64,000 nt of DNA. It comes from Alphaproteobacteria bacterium (GTDB lineage Bacteria; Pseudomonadota; Alphaproteobacteria; UBA2136; UBA6156). Position 1 is the stretch's first letter, and each line of letters begins with the position of its first letter. Location of the stretch: NCBI GenBank assembly GCA_049297695.1, contig JBAQUT010000036.1, forward strand, positions 986 through 64,985, given 5' to 3'. Made by a program: the position numbers and the translations under genes. Positions 40,289 through 51,276 of the stretch are shown piece by piece. The notes under the pieces were generated by a model, which saw only the letters and a program-made list of their open reading frames with translations, was not told the origin of the DNA and did not search any database.

Positions 40289-42046
40289 TTAACGGTCTAA
40301 CGTTTCATAAAACGCCACCACGGCGCTGTGGGTTTTTACGTGGCGGGGTTGGATGGCTTGGGTGAGGTACAGGCCTTCCAAGCTGGTGGCGCGGCTAAGG
40401 GCCACGTACAGTTGGCCTTCGGCGAAGGTGCCGCCGTCGGCCAAATCAATCACGCAGCGTTCCAGCGTTTGGCCTTGGGCCTTGTGGATGGTGAGCGCCC
40501 ATGCCAAGGCTAGAGGAAACTGCACAAATGTGCCCGCCACCGTGGCTACGGGCGTGCCTTCGGCGCCCGCTTGGTAGCGCGTGCTTTCCCACTTTTCCCG
40601 CTCCACCTCAAACACGCCGCGGTCGGTGCGCACTTCGATGTTGTCGTCAGTTAATTTCAACACATGGCCCAGCGTGCCGTTCACCCAACGGCCCAGTTTG
40701 TCGTTGCGGGTGAACATCACTTTGGCCCCCACTTTCAAGGTGAGTTCGGCGGGAGTGGTGAACTCTTTTCCCGCCAAGTCGCCGGTGGTGTCGGCGTGGT
40801 AGGTGCGGGTAGGGGTGTTTAGCTTGGCCAACTCAGTGGCGTTGATGGCATCCACCGTGCTGTTACGGGCGGCCAGAATGACGGCATTTTCGGGCGGAGT
40901 GGCCACCACGCGGGCATTCAGCGGCCCTAGCACGCCACTGCCGTTGTTGCCGCTGCGGATGGAATTGAGCAGGTTGATAAACGGGGCATCGGTTTGGCGG
41001 AAAATATGCGTAAAGCGCAGGGTGGAAAACGCCCCAAGCTCCCACGCCGGTGTGGCAAAAAAGAACGGGTTGGGGTAGGTGGTGGCAAACACCTCGGCTT
41101 CTTCCCGCCGCACCACGGGGGGGAGCTGGCAGAGATCGCCCATCAGCACCAGTTGCACGCCACCAAAGGGTTTTTTGGAAAATTTTCCGTGTTTGCGGAG
41201 GAATTTGTCCATGGCATCAAACACGTCGGCCCGCACCATGGAGATTTCGTCGATGATGATGAGTTCCAGGTTTTCAATCACCTTGGGGTAACGGGCTTTG
41301 GGCACGGGTTGGCCCACCAACAGCTGGGGCTTGAAGCTGAAAAAGCTGTGGATGGTTTGGCCGCCCACATTCAGCGCCGCCATGCCCGTGGGGGCCAGCA
41401 CGGCGTACTTGCGTTTGGTGTCATTCAGATTTTTGCGCAGCCATTTTAAAAACGTACTTTTGCCGGTGCCCGCGCTGCCGAGGATGAGCAGATTTTCGCC
41501 CTCTTGGATGGTTTTCAGCGCGGTTTGGAATTCCGGCGTCACCTGTATTTTTTGGGTGGTGCTGGCGGGTTGCTCCACCCGTTTGGGTTCCGGCTTGGGC
41601 TTGGCGTAGGTGATGGGGGGAGGGGTGGGGTTGGCCTTCAGCGTTGGAATAACTTGGCCCAACTGCACCAGCTTGTAGGCGCAGGCGCGGGGGGTGCGGC
41701 GCAGGTTGGCGGCCAAAGGCTCCAGCGCATCGCCAACCTCGTGGGCAATGAGCAATCGGGCGGTATCGTCCTCGTTCCAGTGGGTGCCAAAGGGCAAAAT
41801 ATCGGCACCTTCGGGGTGGGGGGTTTTGTCGTTCATGATGGCGGTGTAGCGGCCGTAATCCAGCAGGTCGAGCAGGTGGGCGCGGCTTTCCACGCTGGTT
41901 TTGGTGCGGCCCAGCGTTTCGGCCAGCAGGTGGAAACGGGCCGTAAACGTGCCTTGCATATCCCGCAAACCTGCCGCCAGCGTGGCATCGTCGGCCGCGT
42001 TCCAGCGTTTGCCTTGGTTGGCGGGTTTGGGGGTGGTGTCGTCCAT
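40289..42046 (-). CDS. PIF1/RecD-like AAA ATPase DNA helicase
   Basis: LLILGSAGTGKST Walker A; LIIIDEISMV; start 42046 chosen for the GAGG RBS. The track ORF extends further in-frame. Confidence 0.7.
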   Translation of the reverse strand: MDDTTPKPANQGKRWNAADDATLAAGLRDMQGTFTARFHLLAETLGRTKTSVESRAHLLDLLDYGRYTAIMNDKTPHPEGADILPFGTHWNEDDTARLLIAHEVGDALEPLAANLRRTPRACAYKLVQLGQVIPTLKANPTPPPITYAKPKPEPKRVEQPASTTQKIQVTPEFQTALKTIQEGENLLILGSAGTGKSTFLKWLRKNLNDTKRKYAVLAPTGMAALNVGGQTIHSFFSFKPQLLVGQPVPKARYPKVIENLELIIIDEISMVRADVFDAMDKFLRKHGKFSKKPFGGVQLVLMGDLCQLPPVVRREEAEVFATTYPNPFFFATPAWELGAFSTLRFTHIFRQTDAPFINLLNSIRSGNNGSGVLGPLNARVVATPPENAVILAARNSTVDAINATELAKLNTPTRTYHADTTGDLAGKEFTTPAELTLKVGAKVMFTRNDKLGRWVNGTLGHVLKLTDDNIEVRTDRGVFEVEREKWESTRYQAGAEGTPVATVAGTFVQFPLALAWALTIHKAQGQTLERCVIDLADGGTFAEGQLYVALSRATSLEGLYLTQAIQPRHVKTHSAVVAFYETLDR

Positions 42047-42124
42047 AACCCTCTCTAACATATTTCTGACACGGCAATCAAATGGTCTTTTACGCCCTTG
42101 CATTGTTTTGGGGCATGGCCCATA

Positions 42125-42565
42125 AAGCAGGTACGGGCCTGTCCCGGTTTCGACGGAGCTTGAAGGGGTTCCCAAGGAGCATGCGGTGGGGGTTGGATTC
42201 CACCTAAAAAAGTCCAGCAGGCACTTAAATGCCAAATCGACTGTAGACAATAGCCTTGCGGCCCGTCGCGCTATGCGCGCCATGCCCATGGCTATGGCTG
42301 CCTAACCTAGACTCAGATTGGATTCTGACCTAGGCTAGACGCCCCAAGACCGTTTCCCACAGATTGGCGTGGTGGCGGACCCTTGGATTCATCCCCGCCA
42401 ATCTAGGTTCCCGTGGTGTCTTCACGCGGGTCGCGCCGAAATTAAGATGGGCAACCACAGGGTGCGGGGTGTCTGGCGCTAACTGTGGAACCACCAGACA
42501 CTAAGCATGTAGAGCCACACTTCAACGAGGTTCGGACGTGGGTTCGATTCCCACCAGGTCCACCA
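42125..42565 (+). ncRNA. ssrA: tmRNA (ssrA), one-piece
   Basis: 5' GGGCCTG pairs with 3' CAGGTCC-A-CCA including G3:U70. Conserved TTCGACGG, CCCAAGGAGCATGC and 3' CTAAGCATGTAG...GGTTCGATTCCCACCAGGTCCACCA. Internal frame GCC AAA ...GCT GCC TAA ends with Ala-Ala. Confidence 0.75.
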
Positions 42566-42854: not shown

Positions 42855-42940
42855 GGAGGAATTCCCGAGCGGCCAAAGGGGACTGACTGTAAATCAGTTG
42901 GCGTACGCCTTCGAAGGTTCGAATCCTTCTTCCTCCACCA
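42855..42940 (+). tRNA. tRNA-Tyr (GTA), long variable arm
   Basis: GGAGGAATTCCCGAGCGGCCAAAGGGGACTGACTGTAAATCAG...TTCCTCCACCA. Confidence 0.85.
42886..42940 (+). repeat. attL: 3' 55 nt of tRNA-Tyr, identical to the copy at 51116-51170
   Basis: ACTGTAAATCAGTTGGCGTACGCCTTCGAAGGTTCGAATCCTTCTTCCTCCACCA present twice. Confidence 0.8.
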
Positions 42941-43001
42941 TTTTGTTTTATAATATCTTTTCTTGAAAATCCCTCTTCCAAAATTCTCCCTAAAATCTCT
43001 C

Positions 43002-43023
43002 TTTGGGACACTCTTGGGACATT
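43002..43023. repeat. 22-bp direct repeat TTTGGGACACTCTTGGGACATT (copy 1, ~60 bp inside attL)
   Basis: Identical copy at 50977-50998; internal TTGGGACA x2. Confidence 0.6.
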
Positions 43024-43081: not shown

Positions 43082-44341
43082 TTACCTTACTCCCACCAAC
43101 TCATCCCACCGCGTGGTATAGGCACGGGAGAGAGATTCCCGCTTCATCCCCCAGCCCTGTTTAGTGCCAAGGCTCCCCAGCCGCACAAAGGCCTTGCCGT
43201 AGCGGGTATCGAGATTGTCGAGCGTTTGCATCAGGGCTTGGGTGCGGGCGGTATCGGCCCCGTCCAGCAAGCTGGGTTGGTGCTGGGTGGCAGGGATAAG
43301 GTCAAGAAGCAGGATGCCCGCCTTCTTATAGGCAAAGCCCTTGCGGTAAAGGGTGTGGAGCAAGCGGTGGGCGTGCCGTACCAGTTCGGCAGTGTCAGCG
43401 GTGGCGTAGGGCAACCCCATGGCTTGGCTTGCACTATATTGAGAGGCCTTGGGCTTGAACCTGTTAGTATGGGCAAACACCAGCAACCCTTGGGCTAACA
43501 GATTATCCCCTCTTAGCTTGCCAGCGGCGCGGGTTACATAGGCGGCCACCGCTTCTTCCAGTTCGGCCAAGGTGGTTACTTCCCGCCCGAAGCTCCGCGT
43601 GCTTTGGATGCTCTTGCGGGTGGGTTGCACCAGTTCCAGCGGCAAGCAGCTTACCCCCTGCAACTCGCGTACAAGGCGCTCCATCACCACGTTGTACTGT
43701 TTCCGCATGGAGGCGGCATCGGCGTTGCGAAGGTCTAGCCCGCTGTTTATCCGCTGTTCTTTTAACTTCTCGGAAAACTGCCGCCCGATGCCCCATAAAT
43801 CTCCTACGTCCATAGCTCCCAGCGCTGCCTCTTGAGAGGCGTTATCAGACAACAAACAGACACCGCCCAAGGCAGGGTTCTTTTTGGCGGTGCGGTTGGC
43901 GGCTTTGGCGAGGGTTTTGGTGGGGGCAAGGCCGATGCTCACAGGGATGCCCGTCCATTGCTTCACCTTGGCCCGTAGCGCCTGCATTGCGCCTGTTAAG
44001 TGTTCCAAGGGGATGCCCCGCACATCCAAAAAGGCCTCATCCACGCTATACACCTCCACCGCTGGGGCGGCATCCCGCAGCACACTCATCACCCGCGCAC
44101 TCATATCCCCGTAAAGCTGATAGTTGGAAGAAAACACCACCACCCCGTTCTGGCGGCAGAGTTTCTCCACTTTGAACATAGGCGCCCCCATCGGTATCCC
44201 CAGCGCCTTGGCTTCGTTGCTACGGGCTACCACACACCCATCATTATTCGATAACACCACAATGGGTTTGCCTTCCAGCTTGGGGTTGAAGGCCCTCTCA
44301 CACGAAGCATAGAAGTTGTTGCAGTCTACCAGCCCATACAT
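43082..44341 (-). CDS. umuC: Y-family DNA polymerase V catalytic subunit UmuC
   Basis: [23 protein letters not shown] catalytic motifs; 419 aa. Confidence 0.85.
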
Positions 44342-44345
44342 CGCC

Positions 44346-44726
44346 CTACACCTTATGAATCACGTTGCTCACCACACCCCACACCACCAACTCATCCCCC
44401 AGCACCTTGGGCGGCTTGCCTTGTTCGCCCTGCAAGGCCCATTGCCCGTTGACCTTTACCAGCCGCCGCACAAACATCTCTCCCGCCACCACCGCTATCA
44501 CCACGCTCCCCACGGCGGGGGTAAGGCTCTTGTCCACCACCATTAAATCACCTTTAAAGATACCAGCCCCCTGCATGGCATCGGCTTTGGCCCGCACGAA
44601 ATAGGTGGCGGCGGGGTGCTTCACCAAATAGGCGTTCAAGTCCAAGTAACCCTCTAAAAAGTCATCGGCAGGGCTGGGGAAGCCAGCGGCTACGGAACCA
44701 TACAAGGGCAGGAGTTGGGGTTGCAT
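44346..44726 (-). CDS. umuD: UmuD-like S24 peptidase-fold protein with catalytic Ser and Lys replaced (Ala/Arg)
   Basis: VAAGFPSPA cleavage-site region aligns to UmuD CGFPSPA; ASGDSM becomes AKADAM and TVKKL becomes FVRRL. Confidence 0.7.
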
Positions 44727-45031
44727 GGGTTATTGTTGTATCATTAATCACCCGCGGTCAATCCCCATCTATCTCCTTGACGCTGGGGTTATCCCACTCT
44801 AACTTCACAGTTGGAGAGATAACTCTCTGGGGCATCAAAACCTCACAAGATGGCTGGCACCACCAAAAGAGTTGCTGTTTGTGTATTTAGCACATCCTAA
44901 GTTGCGCTCTATGCGGCTGGGTGGTGGTGCTATGTCCAAGGCGTAAGCTGAAAAGCCCCACGCCGTATCTTGTACGGTTTTGAACACCCAGCCACCTTTA
45001 TCGGGTGGCTTTTGTTTGAAACCAACAAAGG

Positions 45032-45334
45032 ATGCACACCATGAAACCCCTCTCTATTGCTGTTCTATTACTGTTATCGGCTTCCGCCGCCCATGCCGAA
45101 TGGGTGAATGGCTACACTCGCAGCAATGGCACCTACGTTGCCCCACACGCTCGTAGCGCCCCCGATGGCAACCGTTTCAACAACTACTCCACCCAAGGCA
45201 ACACAAACCCCTACACAGGCCAAGCGGGAACCGTGAACCCTTACAGCGCCAACCAAGGCGATGCAGGAAACGGCTTTGGTGGTAGCGGCTTCAACCAACC
45301 CAGCACGCCCCGTGGTTTTGGCGGGTGGAGATAA
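45032..45334 (+). CDS. small secreted Gly/Asn-rich hypothetical protein
   Basis: Signal peptide MKPLSIAVLLLLSASAAHA; 100 aa. Confidence 0.4.
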   Translation: MHTMKPLSIAVLLLLSASAAHAEWVNGYTRSNGTYVAPHARSAPDGNRFNNYSTQGNTNPYTGQAGTVNPYSANQGDAGNGFGGSGFNQPSTPRGFGGWR

Positions 45335-47304: not shown

Positions 47305-48228
47305 TTAGGCGGCTTCAGATTCATTTACCCATGTGTTGATGGTGGATGGGCTGGCCTTCAGTTGGCGGGCAATCTCACGCTGCCCCACACCTTGTTCATG
47401 CAGCACAATCGCTTGTTGCCGCCGTGGGTCAACTTTGCGCCCGCCTGTGTAGGGTTCGTGGTGCCAGATAGCGCCTTGGTCGGTCATCATAAGCCGTACC
47501 AAGGTGGGTTTTGATTCCTTGCCTTGCAGGTGGCGTTTCTTGTCAAAGTTCACCACAAAGTGGCTCCCTTCATCGGGTTCAGGCCCCGCAGGTTCGTACA
47601 ACTCAATGGTGATATCGTTCACCACGTTGTGTTGGCTGCTCCCCCGTTGGTCGCCCCCTTTACCAGCATGGTGCAAAATCAGAATAGCCATGCCGCTGGA
47701 ACGTAACGCCATCAACCAGCTTTGCACGTTATCCCATGTGCCCGAATCATTCTCTCGCATGTTGCTGAACAACGTGCTTTTGTTGTCCAGTACCAGCAAG
47801 TCACAGCCCACGTCATCCACGCGGCACATCAGCTCTTGCTGCCCTTCTTCCGTGTTCAGGTGCTTAATGCGGAACGGGCTTTCACATTGTGCCATGCTGT
47901 AAACAAACAGGTTACCGTGGGTGCCCTGTTTGCCTGTCATGGCATCCAGCCGCCGCATCAGCTCTTGGGAGGGCATTTCGCCATCCACATACACCACACG
48001 GGCTTGGCGGGCAGGGGTGAACCCCAAAAAGGGTTCTCCCCGCGCCAACGCAACCGAGAGGCCCAGCGCAAAGTTGCTTTTTCCAATCCCCGCCTTCGCA
48101 TAAAGCATGTTGATACTGTTGGTCAGCAACCACGGGGGCATGAGTACCTCCCGTGGTGGCAGTTCCAACGCCTGAAAGTCCTCGGCGGCAAAAAAGCCCC
48201 AAGGTGCGTTCGTAAGAGGATGGGTCAT
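47305..48228 (-). CDS. RecA-like NTPase (AAA_25 / RepA-DnaB-like replicative loader family) with C-terminal HTH
   Basis: AKAGIGKSNFAL Walker A; VLDNKSTLF; C-terminal HEQGVGQREIARQLKASPSTINTWV HTH. Confidence 0.6.
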   Translation of the reverse strand: MTHPLTNAPWGFFAAEDFQALELPPREVLMPPWLLTNSINMLYAKAGIGKSNFALGLSVALARGEPFLGFTPARQARVVYVDGEMPSQELMRRLDAMTGKQGTHGNLFVYSMAQCESPFRIKHLNTEEGQQELMCRVDDVGCDLLVLDNKSTLFSNMRENDSGTWDNVQSWLMALRSSGMAILILHHAGKGGDQRGSSQHNVVNDITIELYEPAGPEPDEGSHFVVNFDKKRHLQGKESKPTLVRLMMTDQGAIWHHEPYTGGRKVDPRRQQAIVLHEQGVGQREIARQLKASPSTINTWVNESEAA

Positions 48229-48647
48229 CGCACCACCTCCTCATGCACAATGCAATCAAGTGACCATATGCGAATGTAAGGCGCACCAGTCGGCGGTGTA
48301 ATGAGTTTGATGCGGAAATTGAACCCATACTCACGAAGCCTATCAAAAGCCCCCCAAAACCACTTAGGCGGCTTAGTTTGGGTGCTGAAGTGGCCAAAGC
48401 GTAGCATCTCCAGCGCCCTCACCTCAAAACCGTGAGGAGTCGCCAGTTTGGGCACCATTCCTTTACCCCGCTTCCGCCAAACATACCCATGCGGCAGCGG
48501 ATTTTGGTTGAACCACGGCAACGGTTGGGTTACTTTCCGATTGTTAGCCTTAGTTTTAGATTTGTTTAAAACCTCACGCTCGCCCTTGTAAGCACGTGGG
48601 GTTTTTTGTTTAGCGGCCATCGGTGTTACCCTCCCCTTGCTGGCCAT
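48225..48647 (-). CDS. hypothetical protein (possibly N-terminal partner of the replicase)
   Basis: 140-aa basic ORF overlapping the AAA_25 start by 4 nt. Confidence 0.35.
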   Translation of the reverse strand: MASKGRVTPMAAKQKTPRAYKGEREVLNKSKTKANNRKVTQPLPWFNQNPLPHGYVWRKRGKGMVPKLATPHGFEVRALEMLRFGHFSTQTKPPKWFWGAFDRLREYGFNFRIKLITPPTGAPYIRIWSLDCIVHEEVVR

Positions 48648-48864
48648 CTAGCCAAGCAAAAAACTTGGGTTCATCAATGTAAAGGCGCTTGCCAATCCTC
48701 ACCACGGCAATATCAAGGCCATTGCCTTTAACGGGGCCAACGCTGGAATGTCTGTCTTTGGCTTTCCACAAAAGGTTGCGCATTACGGAGGGCGGAAACG
48801 CGGGATTGCGTTCGGCGAATTTGTCCAGCGTCAGAATCAGCCGCTGGGGTGTTTCATTTGTCAT
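48610..48864 (-). CDS. AlpA/excisionase-family HTH (HTH_17) DNA-binding protein
   Basis: VVRIGKRLYIDEPKFFAWLDG resembles AlpA/Xis C-terminus. Confidence 0.55.
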   Translation of the reverse strand: MTNETPQRLILTLDKFAERNPAFPPSVMRNLLWKAKDRHSSVGPVKGNGLDIAVVRIGKRLYIDEPKFFAWLDGQQGEGNTDGR

Positions 48865-48981
48865 AGGTTTTATTCCTATCAGTTACCGCTAGGCCCCTGC
48901 ATCAATACTTGAGCATTCGCTAGCGTTGATAGGATTAGAACATGAGTTTATCTATATGAAAAGTAACGAGTATTTGCAAAG

Positions 48982-49872
48982 TCATTCACTTTGCAAACTT
49001 TTAATTACTTCGGTTACTAATCTCAACGATGGAGAACCATCTCCCATAGCTTTCATTGTTAACTTTGCAAGATTGTTTCTTGAAAAATTGGGATTTCGAT
49101 TCATAATGGGAATTGCAAAACTCTTAATAAGTTCATTTCTAGCTTTTGCTTGTTCTTTATTTTTAGTTAATCCCTTGCCCTGTCCTTTTGTGATTTTATA
49201 TCCCATTGTACCAAACATTCCTTGGGTCAAAAGATAATCCCCGCGCTTCATAGCAATGTTAAAATCATAATTTAGCCATTGATTTATTTGTCTTAAATCT
49301 CGTAAGTCTACAAGGTCAAGATTCCTACATCTTCCAATTTCTATCTCATCAGGGGATTCTGAGTAGTGAGACTGTTCAAGAATTTCTGAGTATTCACCGC
49401 ATCCAATCCATGAATGCATCCTTTCAGGTGCATAGTACTCTCCAACTCTTATTAATTTATCAATGTAGAGAAGATAGAGTGGATTCTCATAAATAAATTC
49501 ATGGGGCATTGGATATTCAGTTTTTAGGTAATTTTTGTAAAGCTCATACCTAATTACTTCTAATCCAGGGTGTATTAAAGGATGAGCTTTAAGCTGTTCA
49601 ATAATCCACGGTTCATTGTGACAATGCAGTAATTGAAAATCACGTTGCCGCTGACGTTCAATGTACTCTTTATTTAGACGTTCAATTTCATATTCAACAA
49701 TCCTACAGGGATAAGGTATGGTTGATTGTTTTAGTAAATCCTTTAGTAAGCTTTCACTATAGGGCACAGCCTCTATATCATTTAATCTTGAAATATGTCC
49801 TAAATCATATGGGGTCGCATATTCAATTTCATGAATTTTACAATCAAGAAGCTTAAAGTAGTGAGGTATCAC
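48982..49872 (-). CDS. hypothetical protein, strongly low-GC (~35%) cargo next to the integrase
   Basis: 296-aa ORF; no recognisable family; 4-bp overlap with the int stop. Confidence 0.5.
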   Translation of the reverse strand: MIPHYFKLLDCKIHEIEYATPYDLGHISRLNDIEAVPYSESLLKDLLKQSTIPYPCRIVEYEIERLNKEYIERQRQRDFQLLHCHNEPWIIEQLKAHPLIHPGLEVIRYELYKNYLKTEYPMPHEFIYENPLYLLYIDKLIRVGEYYAPERMHSWIGCGEYSEILEQSHYSESPDEIEIGRCRNLDLVDLRDLRQINQWLNYDFNIAMKRGDYLLTQGMFGTMGYKITKGQGKGLTKNKEQAKARNELIKSFAIPIMNRNPNFSRNNLAKLTMKAMGDGSPSLRLVTEVIKSLQSE

Positions 49873-50942
49873 CCAAACACCCTCTCCGTCATTTTGCTCA
49901 CCACTTCAACCGCGTGGTTATCGGCAAGGTGGGCATAGCGTTTCACCATTTGGATGCTGCGGTGGCCCAGAATGGCGGACAGCACGGGCAGGGTAACGCC
50001 TGATTCCAACAGGTAGGTGGCGGCGGTGTGGCGGAGGTCGTGGAAACGGAAGTCCTCTATTTTGGCTTCTTTGAGTGCGGCCTCCCAATGATTGGCTGGG
50101 TCAAGTGGAGCCATACCATCGGCACGGGGGAAGATGAGGTCGGTGTTCAAGCGCCTTACCTTGCTGGCTTCCTGCAAAACTCTATGCGCCAAGCCTGTCA
50201 GGGGTACGGAGCGTTTATCGCCGTTCTTACTATCTTCCACCCGTATCACCTGCCGCGTAAAATCCACATCCCGCCAGCGGAGGTTTAAGAGTTCACCCTT
50301 ACGCATCCCCGTACAAATAGCCATGACAACAAGGGGGTAAAGGAGCGGATGTCGGCCCTCCGCCTTACAGGCTTCCAACAGGGCTTTGCGTTCATCGGCG
50401 GAGAGATAGCGCACGCGGGCGTTGTTGGGTTCCAGCTTTCTTACTTCATTCAAAGGATTAAGGCGAATCCAGTTCAACTCCTTGTGGGCATACGCTAAGG
50501 CGGCGGAAAGGGCTATGAGGTAATGGTTGACGGTGGCGGCCTTGATACGTTGGGCATCCTTGACGTTCCGCCATGTCTTTTGCATGAGTTCCCGCTTGTA
50601 GGTGTTGATTTTGTCGGCGGTAATGTCGATGAGGTATTTATCCCCCAGCCGCTCCTTCCACCACATAAGTTGCTTTTCACGTTGGGCGTACTGATAAGCC
50701 CCCACAGTGTGTTTATAGTTGATAAGGTAATCGGTAATGGTTTCATGAAGGGTACGGACAGCGGCCTCATGGTTTTCAAACTTCAAACCGCGCTTGATGT
50801 CCGCTTCCTCTTTTTGTACCCAATCCTTGGCATCGGAGAGGCGTTCAAATGAGGCGCTTTTGGGTTTATGGCCCTTTAGTCTTATTTTTGCCCGATATGT
50901 TGGGACACCGTTCCGCCCTTTACGCTTTTCAATAACCGCCAT
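49869..50942 (-). CDS. int: tyrosine-type site-specific integrase (P4-like)
   Basis: N-terminal arm-binding region MAVIEKRKGRNGVPTYRAKIR; catalytic HDLRHT...LGH...Y (KRYAHL). Confidence 0.85.
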   Translation of the reverse strand: MAVIEKRKGRNGVPTYRAKIRLKGHKPKSASFERLSDAKDWVQKEEADIKRGLKFENHEAAVRTLHETITDYLINYKHTVGAYQYAQREKQLMWWKERLGDKYLIDITADKINTYKRELMQKTWRNVKDAQRIKAATVNHYLIALSAALAYAHKELNWIRLNPLNEVRKLEPNNARVRYLSADERKALLEACKAEGRHPLLYPLVVMAICTGMRKGELLNLRWRDVDFTRQVIRVEDSKNGDKRSVPLTGLAHRVLQEASKVRRLNTDLIFPRADGMAPLDPANHWEAALKEAKIEDFRFHDLRHTAATYLLESGVTLPVLSAILGHRSIQMVKRYAHLADNHAVEVVSKMTERVFG

Positions 50943-50976: not shown

Positions 50977-50998
50977 TTTGGGACACTCTTGGGACATT
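50977..50998. repeat. 22-bp direct repeat TTTGGGACACTCTTGGGACATT (copy 2, between int and attR)
   Basis: Identical to 43002-43023. Confidence 0.6.
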
Positions 50999-51115: not shown

Positions 51116-51170
51116 ACTGTAAATCAGTTGGCGTACGCCTTCGAAGGTTCGAATCCTTCTTCCTCCACCA
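51116..51170 (+). repeat. attR: duplicated 3' 55 nt of tRNA-Tyr
   Basis: Identical to 42886-42940; not preceded by the 5' half of a tRNA. Confidence 0.8.
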
Positions 51171-51255
51171 TATTTGCCCCAAGGGGGCTTATGACAAAGC
51201 AAGAAGAAGGAACAACGGCTTCACACGGCCGCAGGCCACATACAAACCAGCCGTC

Positions 51256-51276
51256 ATCCTTCTTCCTCCACCATTT
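51256..51276 (+). repeat. third, 21-bp copy of the tRNA-Tyr 3' terminus (ATCCTTCTTCCTCCACCATTT)
   Basis: Lies 85 bp beyond attR. Confidence 0.55.

Follow-up and report, generated by a model that had tools for sequence, protein, structure and literature searches.

Introduction

What becomes of a translesion polymerase of the Pol V type when its UmuD subunit can no longer cut itself? Textbooks present the RecA*-stimulated self-cleavage of UmuD as a post-translational safety catch on DNA polymerase V (Pol V), the main mutagenic polymerase of the SOS response, and this step has been discussed as a drug target to slow the evolution of resistance. The question is raised by a 64,000-nucleotide stretch of a bacterial genome (GenBank assembly GCA_049297695.1, contig JBAQUT010000036.1; hereafter the window), in which a small integrative island carries a umuD-like gene with a dead catalytic dyad directly upstream of an intact umuC (Table 1). 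Here, we propose, tentatively and from comparison of sequences, that the protein encoded by this gene (island UmuD) is a cleavage-independent, short-arm accessory subunit of Pol V. An earlier reading of the locus, made from its letters without database searches (the sequence-only reading), had noted the altered dyad and offered three functional options: an inhibitory or checkpoint subunit, a pseudo-peptidase adaptor, or a route to Pol V activation that bypasses cleavage.

Results

The catalytic dyad of island UmuD is replaced

Island UmuD is a UmuD homologue of the S24 peptidase family. It scores 71.8 bits to Pfam PF00717 (Peptidase_S24; cutoff 23.3) and 122.5 bits to NCBIfam PRK10276, the Pol V autoproteolytic subunit (cutoff 110), and its nearest solved structure is Escherichia coli UmuD (8gmt_B, E 1.2e-22). 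An AlphaFold2 model has a predicted local distance difference test score of 81-92 over residues 30-126, and its top structural match is UmuD' (1umu; template modelling score 0.84). This monomer confirms the fold only and was discarded as uninformative evidence on arm docking, because the arms of UmuD dock in trans within the dimer. The S24 domain is the sole domain of the 126-residue protein, which is thus not of the UmuDAb type (about 200 residues in total, with an N-terminal DNA-binding extension).

As the sequence-only reading had it, both dyad residues are substituted. Ser60 of UmuD corresponds to Ala50 (codon GCC, 44577-44579; AKADAM on ASGDSM) and Lys97 to Arg87 (codon CGG, 44466-44468; FVRRL on TVKKL). 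Two further pocket positions have changed, Gly58 to Ala48 and Thr95 to Phe85, so that four are altered altogether. The dyad columns were taken from a gap-free HMMER alignment, from MAFFT and from hmmalign to a 122-sequence profile, and all three agree; the shifted alignment against which the sequence-only reading had asked for a check was not found. Among the 118 nearest homologues from a search of 5.8 billion proteins, Gly58, Ser60, Lys97 and Gly25 are each present in all 118, Ala24 in 117 and Thr95 in 110. The clade of island UmuD has Ala or Ser at column 58, Ala at 60, Phe or Tyr at 95 and Arg at 97. Below, proteins with Ala and Arg in the dyad columns are called Ala/Arg and those with the intact dyad Ser/Lys. 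With neither nucleophile nor general base left, and two supporting residues changed as well, island UmuD is predicted, as expected earlier, to have lost autoproteolysis permanently and to be unable to cleave itself to UmuD'.

Could catalysis survive in another guise, with the dyad columns misassigned or a Ser and a Lys elsewhere permitting self-cleavage? A Ser does occur at column 58 (SDAM) in the relative P0002, described below, and in 46 of 111 other Ala/Arg proteins. Island UmuD, however, has Ala at this column, in a loop (AKADAM) without Ser, Thr or Cys, and the three independent alignments are ungapped at both motifs. Arg, moreover, cannot serve as a general base at physiological pH in S24 enzymology. 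We regard this explanation as scarcely credible.

The scissile bond is kept behind a short stub

The Cys24-Gly25 region had been read as conserved, and it is: the equivalent bond, Ala14-Gly15 (44682-44687), is intact and of the LexA type, and the sequence around it, VAA-GFPSPADD, matches the active relatives exactly, including the whole GFPSPADD arm. Only 14 residues precede the bond in island UmuD vs 24 in UmuD, and the first ten or so residues of E. coli UmuD have no counterpart. In the closest sequence pair the arm motifs are fixed, and the rest of the stub differs at 4 of 15 positions vs 2 of 112 in the core (Fisher p = 0.002).

The partner polymerase is intact

The start codon of umuC follows the umuD stop codon after a gap of 4 nt. 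Island UmuC scores 423 bits to NCBIfam PRK03609, slightly below the cutoff of 431. Its catalytic motifs are complete (D6, F10, Y11, D101 and E102), in keeping with the sequence-only reading, and the RecA-NT-like region and C-terminal tail are present.

The tail matters to the interpretation of the pocket. In a published AlphaFold model of Pol V, the C-terminal carboxylate of UmuC contacts S36, T71 and K73 of UmuD', and the side chain of the last UmuC residue lies on E69 (PMC11791011). By our own renumbering (+24), these residues are S60, T95, K97 and E93 of UmuD. Because the tail docks on S60, T95 and K97 in that model, the pocket would have a second, non-catalytic role. UmuC tails are still conserved in the partners of Ala/Arg UmuDs. 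The tails of Ser/Lys partners end in [WY]xDLLxV[KR] and those of Ala/Arg partners in W[DE]EL[CYF]xV[KRH], often with Glu at -3, a difference that may reflect co-adaptation with the altered pocket. We also considered that the change from Lys to Arg was selected because Arg is a better ligand for the terminal carboxylate of UmuC. This fits the Pol V model and is kept only as a possibility; it is weakened because Ala/Arg also occurs in domain 1 of the fusion proteins described below, where the pocket is probably idle.

Relatives and selection

The loss of the dyad is not a sequencing error, since an identical protein was found in the NCBI metagenome-assembled genome (MAG) and in an independent Logan assembly, and two relatives agree: P0121 (ENA, in the same cluster at 90% identity or more) and P0002 (70% identical, with an arm of 16 residues) are both Ala/Arg. 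P0002 lies on a syntenic element, L001, which likewise carries an integrase, an AAA_25 ATPase, umuD and umuC. Compared with L001, the ratio of nonsynonymous to synonymous substitution rates (dN/dS) is 0.29 for umuD (dS 0.88) and 0.19 for umuC, similar to the remaining island genes; umuD has therefore been maintained, and both genes are under purifying selection. Both elements use GCC for Ala50; for Arg87 one has CGG and the other CGC. The Arg87 codons are two steps from AAR and have diverged synonymously, so the substitution is old and maintained.

These values bear on the suspicion that umuD has been freshly inactivated and is becoming a pseudogene. The island is small, and a protein of a related element, P0122 (ENA, 83 residues), consists of residues 1-69 of UmuD followed without a gap by the final 14 residues of UmuC; it is either a umuDC deletion derivative, which would fit decay, or an assembly chimera. 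Against decay, the reading frame is intact across three diverged variants, dN/dS is low at a considerable dS, the most conservative replacements sit exactly at the catalytic positions with the remaining fold conserved, and the AlphaFold2 core is modelled with confidence. Decay thus appears very improbable.

The 5.8-billion-protein search returned only the clusters P0001 and P0002 as members, a clade-specific DNA pattern retrieved from JGI metagenomes three distant Bacteroidota-type genes and no clade member, and none of five Ser-to-Ala matches in IMG/VR belongs to it. Where did the allele come from? The clade is 58-61% identical to Ser/Lys proteins vs at most 50% to any Ala/Arg protein of the species-genome scan described below, and in a neighbour-joining tree it nests among Ser/Lys proteins, with at least six changes of state needed (a rough count, as sampling is biased). 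Its dyad loss was therefore independent. The Ser/Lys proteins that appear as its sisters in the tree, P0004 and P0011, are encoded in ordinary chromosomal umuDC operons and not on the island.

Dead-dyad UmuDs recur across bacteria

The sequence-only reading implied that such a protein is unique, which proved wrong. When one genome of each GTDB species was scanned for DNA that encodes D-A-M-x3-G-I-x2-G-D-x3-V-D, UmuD-like genes with Ser replaced by Ala were found in at least 120 species genomes. All 120 listed loci match the UmuD profile, 116 have Arg at the Lys97 column, and most of the listed Ala/Arg loci have Leu, Val or Ile in place of Thr95. The listed matches come mostly from Chitinophagaceae and other Bacteroidota, with others from Balneolaceae, picocyanobacteria, Arthrobacter, Pseudoclavibacter, Ideonella, Polynucleobacter, Marinospirillum, Buttiauxella and Pedobacter. 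Of the at least 120 listed loci, 91 include a umuC open reading frame (ORF), which in 57 immediately follows the umuD-like gene; every complete UmuC keeps D6, D101 and E102, and 118 of 122 loci have a single S24 ORF. The full signature, Ala/Arg with a hydrophobic residue at column 95 and an adjoining umuC, is found in 111-116 of the 120 scanned loci and in two further proteins, P0231 and P0193. Island UmuD has it too: Ala50, Arg87 and Phe85, in a single gene adjoining an intact umuC. The Ala/Arg class is polyphyletic and is therefore a shared state, not a clade. Automatic annotation labels these dead-dyad proteins 'autoproteolytic subunit'. The Ala form is rare in viral contigs, at 5 loci vs at least 120 for the Ser form.

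The Bacteroidota Ala/Arg family (L004-L122, e.g. L006 1306-1750) has a T-G site and a GFGAAADDY arm and usually lies next to umuC. Its N-terminal arm, of 28 residues, is conserved (consensus MDGEEFYGAAYKGSKQFTQQQVPTANATGF...); with a conservation of 0.62 vs 0.71 for the core, this arm is probably functional in the full-length protein.

How common is the state among UmuD proteins at large? Searching 1.84 billion cluster representatives exhaustively with HMMER yielded 8456 matches, of which the best 150 were classified by their hmmalign columns. These comprise 133 single-domain proteins (119 Ser/Lys and 14, about 10%, with a defective dyad) and 17 two-domain fusions. Most of the single-gene defective-dyad proteins retain Ala-Gly. 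The annotated arm of single-domain proteins has a median of 25.5 residues with a defective dyad vs 51 with an intact one (one-sided Mann-Whitney p = 7e-4), and arms of 1, 14, 15, 16 and 28 residues occur in the Ala/Arg proteins. P0231 and P0193 have an Ala-Gly site behind short arms, of 14 and 15 residues respectively. Each is encoded by a single gene immediately before umuC, no live paralogue lies nearby, and P0231 has lost the LPLF-type arm motif. Other dead variants are already truncated, as L003, L109 and P0267 begin at or beside the site Gly.

Dead and live UmuDs also occur as pairs

In the fusions (P0123, P0126, P0129, P0214 and 13 others), domain 1 mostly carries an Ala/Cys-Gly site and has a defective dyad in 11 of 17 (A/R, S/R, H/R, A/Q and others). 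Domain 2 is armless; its Gly-Ser...Lys is intact in 15 of 17, with Thr95 in 9 of these. In Cyanobium/Prochlorococcaceae the same pair occurs as neighbouring genes (L014, 438-2516; L102, 6056-7542), in the order Ala/Arg gene with a site, armless Ser/Lys gene, umuC. The fusions and pairs look like hard-wired heterodimers of substrate and enzyme, and we found no description of either arrangement in the literature. With its Ala-Gly bond, FPSPA motif and LPLYG...VAAG strand, island UmuD resembles the 'arm donor' unit.

Might island UmuD, then, be a substrate-only protomer, its Ala14-Gly15 bond cut in trans by a live host UmuD or S24 protein in a heterodimer on RecA*? Activation of the island Pol V would then depend on the SOS protease of the host. 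This option is absent from the sequence-only reading and is made real by the fusions and pairs, which show such a division of labour in nature. Cleavage of UmuD is intermolecular, the site region of one protomer lying in the active site of the other by cryo-electron microscopy (PMC9926225); a live partner could therefore cut a dead protomer whose site is intact. Island UmuD keeps the bond, the motif and the preceding strand with Tyr9, and most other single-gene defective-dyad proteins keep their Ala-Gly. Yet a second S24 ORF is found neither on the island nor in L001 nor elsewhere in the 64-kb window, and reliance on an unlinked host protease would be fragile for a mobile element. Single dead-UmuD operons with umuC also recur across lineages, as the single S24 ORF of most loci attests, and the residue before the scissile bond (P1) is Thr in 87 of 111 members of the largest Ala/Arg family. 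We consider trans cleavage the main rival reading, though unlikely on balance.

The island, its neighbours and regulation

That the gene is island-borne was correctly recognised from the first: umuDC is cargo of an 8.2-kb integrative element flanked by 59-nt direct repeats of the 3' end of tRNA-Tyr and equipped with a tyrosine integrase (Table 1). The integrase is 67% identical to that of L001. The AAA_25 protein likely serves the island in replication or mobilisation. PADLOC and PHROGs, run over the island ORFs, revealed neither defence systems nor phage structural genes.

Table 1. Features of the umuDC island and its surroundings (positions in the window)
Feature	Position	Strand	Remarks
umuD-like gene, dead catalytic dyad	44346..44726	-	126 amino acids, ATG start
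umuC, Y-family polymerase	43082..44341	-	419 amino acids; Pfam IMS, IMS_C, DUF4113
tRNA-Tyr, integration target	42855-42940	+	3' 59 nt (42886-42944) are the left attachment repeat; feature spans 42855..42944
right attachment repeat (attR)	51116..51174	+	98% identity to the 3' end of tRNA-Tyr; left copy 8230 nt away
tyrosine integrase	49869..50942	-	Pfam Phage_integrase 1.6e-35; phrog_1 3e-71
RepA/DnaB-like AAA_25 ATPase with C-terminal helix-turn-helix	47305..48228	-	syntenic in L001
sigma-70-like promoter, TTGACC-18 nt-AACAAT	44732..44761	-	consensus match only
sRNA-Xcc1-like element (RF02221)	44915-45020	+	intrinsic terminator at 44990-45010 plus T-run
small secreted protein	45041-45334	+	Gly/Asn-rich; phrog_29674 (7.5e-15)
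22-nt repeat	43002-43023, 50977-50998		identical copies, just inside each island end
third tRNA-Tyr 3'-end copy	51256-51276		21 nt, about 100 nt past attR
low-GC stretch	48001-50000		G+C 0.44 vs about 0.57 elsewhere
ORF in low-GC stretch	48982-49872	-	296 amino acids; no family match
one-piece tmRNA, standard type	42135-42565	+	RF00023, 98 bits
PIF1-like helicase ORF	40289-42289	-	start overlapped by tmRNA

Upstream of umuD there is a sole promoter-like site, whose -10 element stops 5 nt before the ATG. With the -10 element this near and no Shine-Dalgarno sequence, the umuD mRNA may be leaderless. The TTGAC element of this candidate is conserved in L001; the number of promoter-type sites found is no higher than expected from shuffled sequence. 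Over the 305-325 nt that precede umuD, in the window as in L001, none of six known types of LexA box occurs with at most one mismatch. The gamma/beta box has no match in the whole window, and the alpha direct-repeat box has four, none of them near umuD.

Upstream of umuD and divergent from it lie two small features. The first is an sRNA-Xcc1-like element, of a small RNA family known from integrons and genomic islands. It is matched over its full length (41.7 bits, below the gathering score of 53; E 3.7e-6) and ends in the terminator. Its region is about 80% identical to L001 vs 69-71% for the flanking genes, with several compensatory base pairs. Directly past it, the gene for a small secreted protein encodes the signal peptide MKPLSIAVLLLLSASAAHA; its product is 79% identical to that of L001 over 47 residues.

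The 22-nt repeats (TTTGGGACACTCTTGGGACATT) may be integrase arm sites, and an earlier integration may have left the third copy of the tRNA-Tyr 3' end. The low-GC stretch may be a variable cargo slot; its ORF has 24% identity in L001. Outside the island, the tmRNA (transfer-messenger RNA) overlaps the start of the helicase ORF, whose true start is therefore probably downstream. Although a two-piece tmRNA is the norm in alphaproteobacteria, this one is in a single piece; the MAG carries the label Alphaproteobacteria, and PRK09165 is the best model match of its DnaB.

Discussion

In light of a dyad that is dead yet selected, what might the role of island UmuD be? We favour, tentatively, a cleavage-independent accessory subunit. 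Island UmuD would pair with the adjoining intact UmuC as a Pol V-type translesion polymerase that has no RecA*-stimulated step from UmuD to UmuD'. The 14-residue stub may lack the length to hold the inhibitory full-length state, or may dock too weakly to do so, in which case the protein would act as a built-in mimic of UmuD', and control of the mutagenic polymerase would shift to transcription and to the binding of RecA-ATP to UmuC. What such a mimic would use is retained: the UmuD fold, the GFPSPADD arm, which reaches into UmuC in UmuD', and the UmuC tail, docked by the published model in the pocket of UmuD'. The recurrence of operons of dead UmuD and intact umuC, the shortened arms and the purifying selection together favour this route. 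An experimental precedent is UmuD 18 (deletion of residues 1-17), which is uncleaved, supports low but detectable mutagenesis by ultraviolet light (UV) and partially mimics UmuD' (PMC5342242).

Several points weigh on the other side. E. coli UmuD S60A and UmuD 8 S60A are essentially non-mutable, and UmuD 18 is itself weak (PMC5342242). In the Pol V model the free N-terminus at Gly25 lies near the active site of UmuC (PMC11791011), where a 14-residue extension might fit badly. The island clade keeps the Ala-Gly bond and the preceding LPL(Y/F)G...VAAG strand, a pattern that would suit an arm that is still docked or still a substrate for cleavage; the strand includes Tyr9, the equivalent of Phe18, which in the substrate protomer contacts RecA (PMC9926225). 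Arm lengths hinge on annotated start codons. Finally, we rejected the short arm as proof of pre-activation, as it is not diagnostic: arms of 16 residues or fewer occur in 5 of the 118 nearest Ser/Lys homologues too.

Might the protein instead be a permanent brake or manager, which holds UmuC in the full-length UmuD2C state for a checkpoint-like or accuracy-promoting role without mutagenic synthesis? Uncleaved E. coli UmuD blocks UmuC-dependent mutagenesis, and S60A strongly cuts UV mutagenesis (PMC3901139, PMC5342242); island UmuD has also kept the strand by which the arm docks on the globular domain. A brake, however, would hardly account for a UmuC whose catalytic residues, steric gate, RecA-NT region and tail are conserved under purifying selection here and in about 90 other umuC genes linked to Ala/Arg umuDs. 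Nor would it account for dead-dyad arms that are shortened rather than elaborated, with the first ten or so residues of E. coli UmuD absent. We find a brake distinctly improbable. Of the three options of the sequence-only reading, the comparison thus favours the cleavage-independent route and the pseudo-peptidase adaptor and disfavours a purely inhibitory or checkpoint role.

How does island UmuD compare with known systems? Like E. coli UmuD/UmuD', with which it shares fold and subfamily, it has the GFPSPA(D/A)D arm and the dimer core; the umuD-umuC gene order is the same, and UmuC has its tail and RecA-NT-like region in both. It differs in the replacement of Ser60, Lys97, Gly58 and Thr95, in having Ala and not Cys at P1 and in having no recognised LexA box. 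HumD of phage P1 is likewise a UmuD-family protein on a mobile element that acts without cleavage, but it mimics UmuD' by truncation, starting with MGFPSPA... at the site and keeping Ser and Lys, whereas the island protein has a 14-residue stub and a lost dyad; to the HumD model NF051876 it scores 73 bits vs a cutoff of 120. Laboratory variants (UmuD S60A, K97A, UmuD 18 and UmuD3A) are also non-cleavable, and UmuD3A is said to be a partial UmuD' mimic with undocked or short arms. These are, however, single or triple changes engineered in E. coli and mostly defective in mutagenesis; the island allele is natural and selected, differs at four pocket positions and has a UmuC that evolved with it. 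MucA/MucB and RumA/RumB are Pol V-type operons that travel on plasmids and on integrative and conjugative elements. In MucA and RumA the Ser-Lys dyad is intact and activation comes about through cleavage, whereas the island dyad is dead and its carrier is a small tRNA-integrated island.

More distant parallels are also known. YolD/YqjX, non-protease subunits of Gram-positive UmuC-like polymerases with a proposed N-terminal arm and SH3-like core (PMC6511836, PMC12926913), are only functional analogues: they form a family without detectable sequence relationship, whereas the island protein is a true S24/UmuD homologue. SipA of Streptococcus pyogenes and the C-terminal domain of the phage 186 repressor, which are among the structural matches, are S24/S26 folds that work without the dyad, although their similarity is distant and their roles (pilus assembly and oligomerisation) are unrelated. 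In the full-text literature, with MEROPS and subscription-only papers outside its scope, we found no natural dyad-less UmuD homologue described.

More broadly, we suggest, as a picture still more tentative than our reading of island UmuD, that non-cleavable UmuDs are widespread and have evolved repeatedly, dispensing with the RecA* checkpoint, the pocket serving as a dock for the UmuC tail. Elsewhere, the dimer would have been split into a dead arm donor and a live armless enzyme, fused or encoded side by side. The island allele would be a young case, with its site still intact.

A selected, non-cleaving UmuD with an intact polymerase on a mobile element would make the post-translational safety catch on SOS mutagenesis optional. 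This is no one-off, given the at least 120 species genomes and about one in ten of the diverse cluster representatives. The island allele, which keeps the site and differs from its active relatives mainly in the pocket, is a handy test case for asking whether cleavage is necessary, whether a dead protomer is processed in trans and what job the pocket does in Pol V. Most of the interest lies in the broader dead-dyad class and in the split dead/live architectures.

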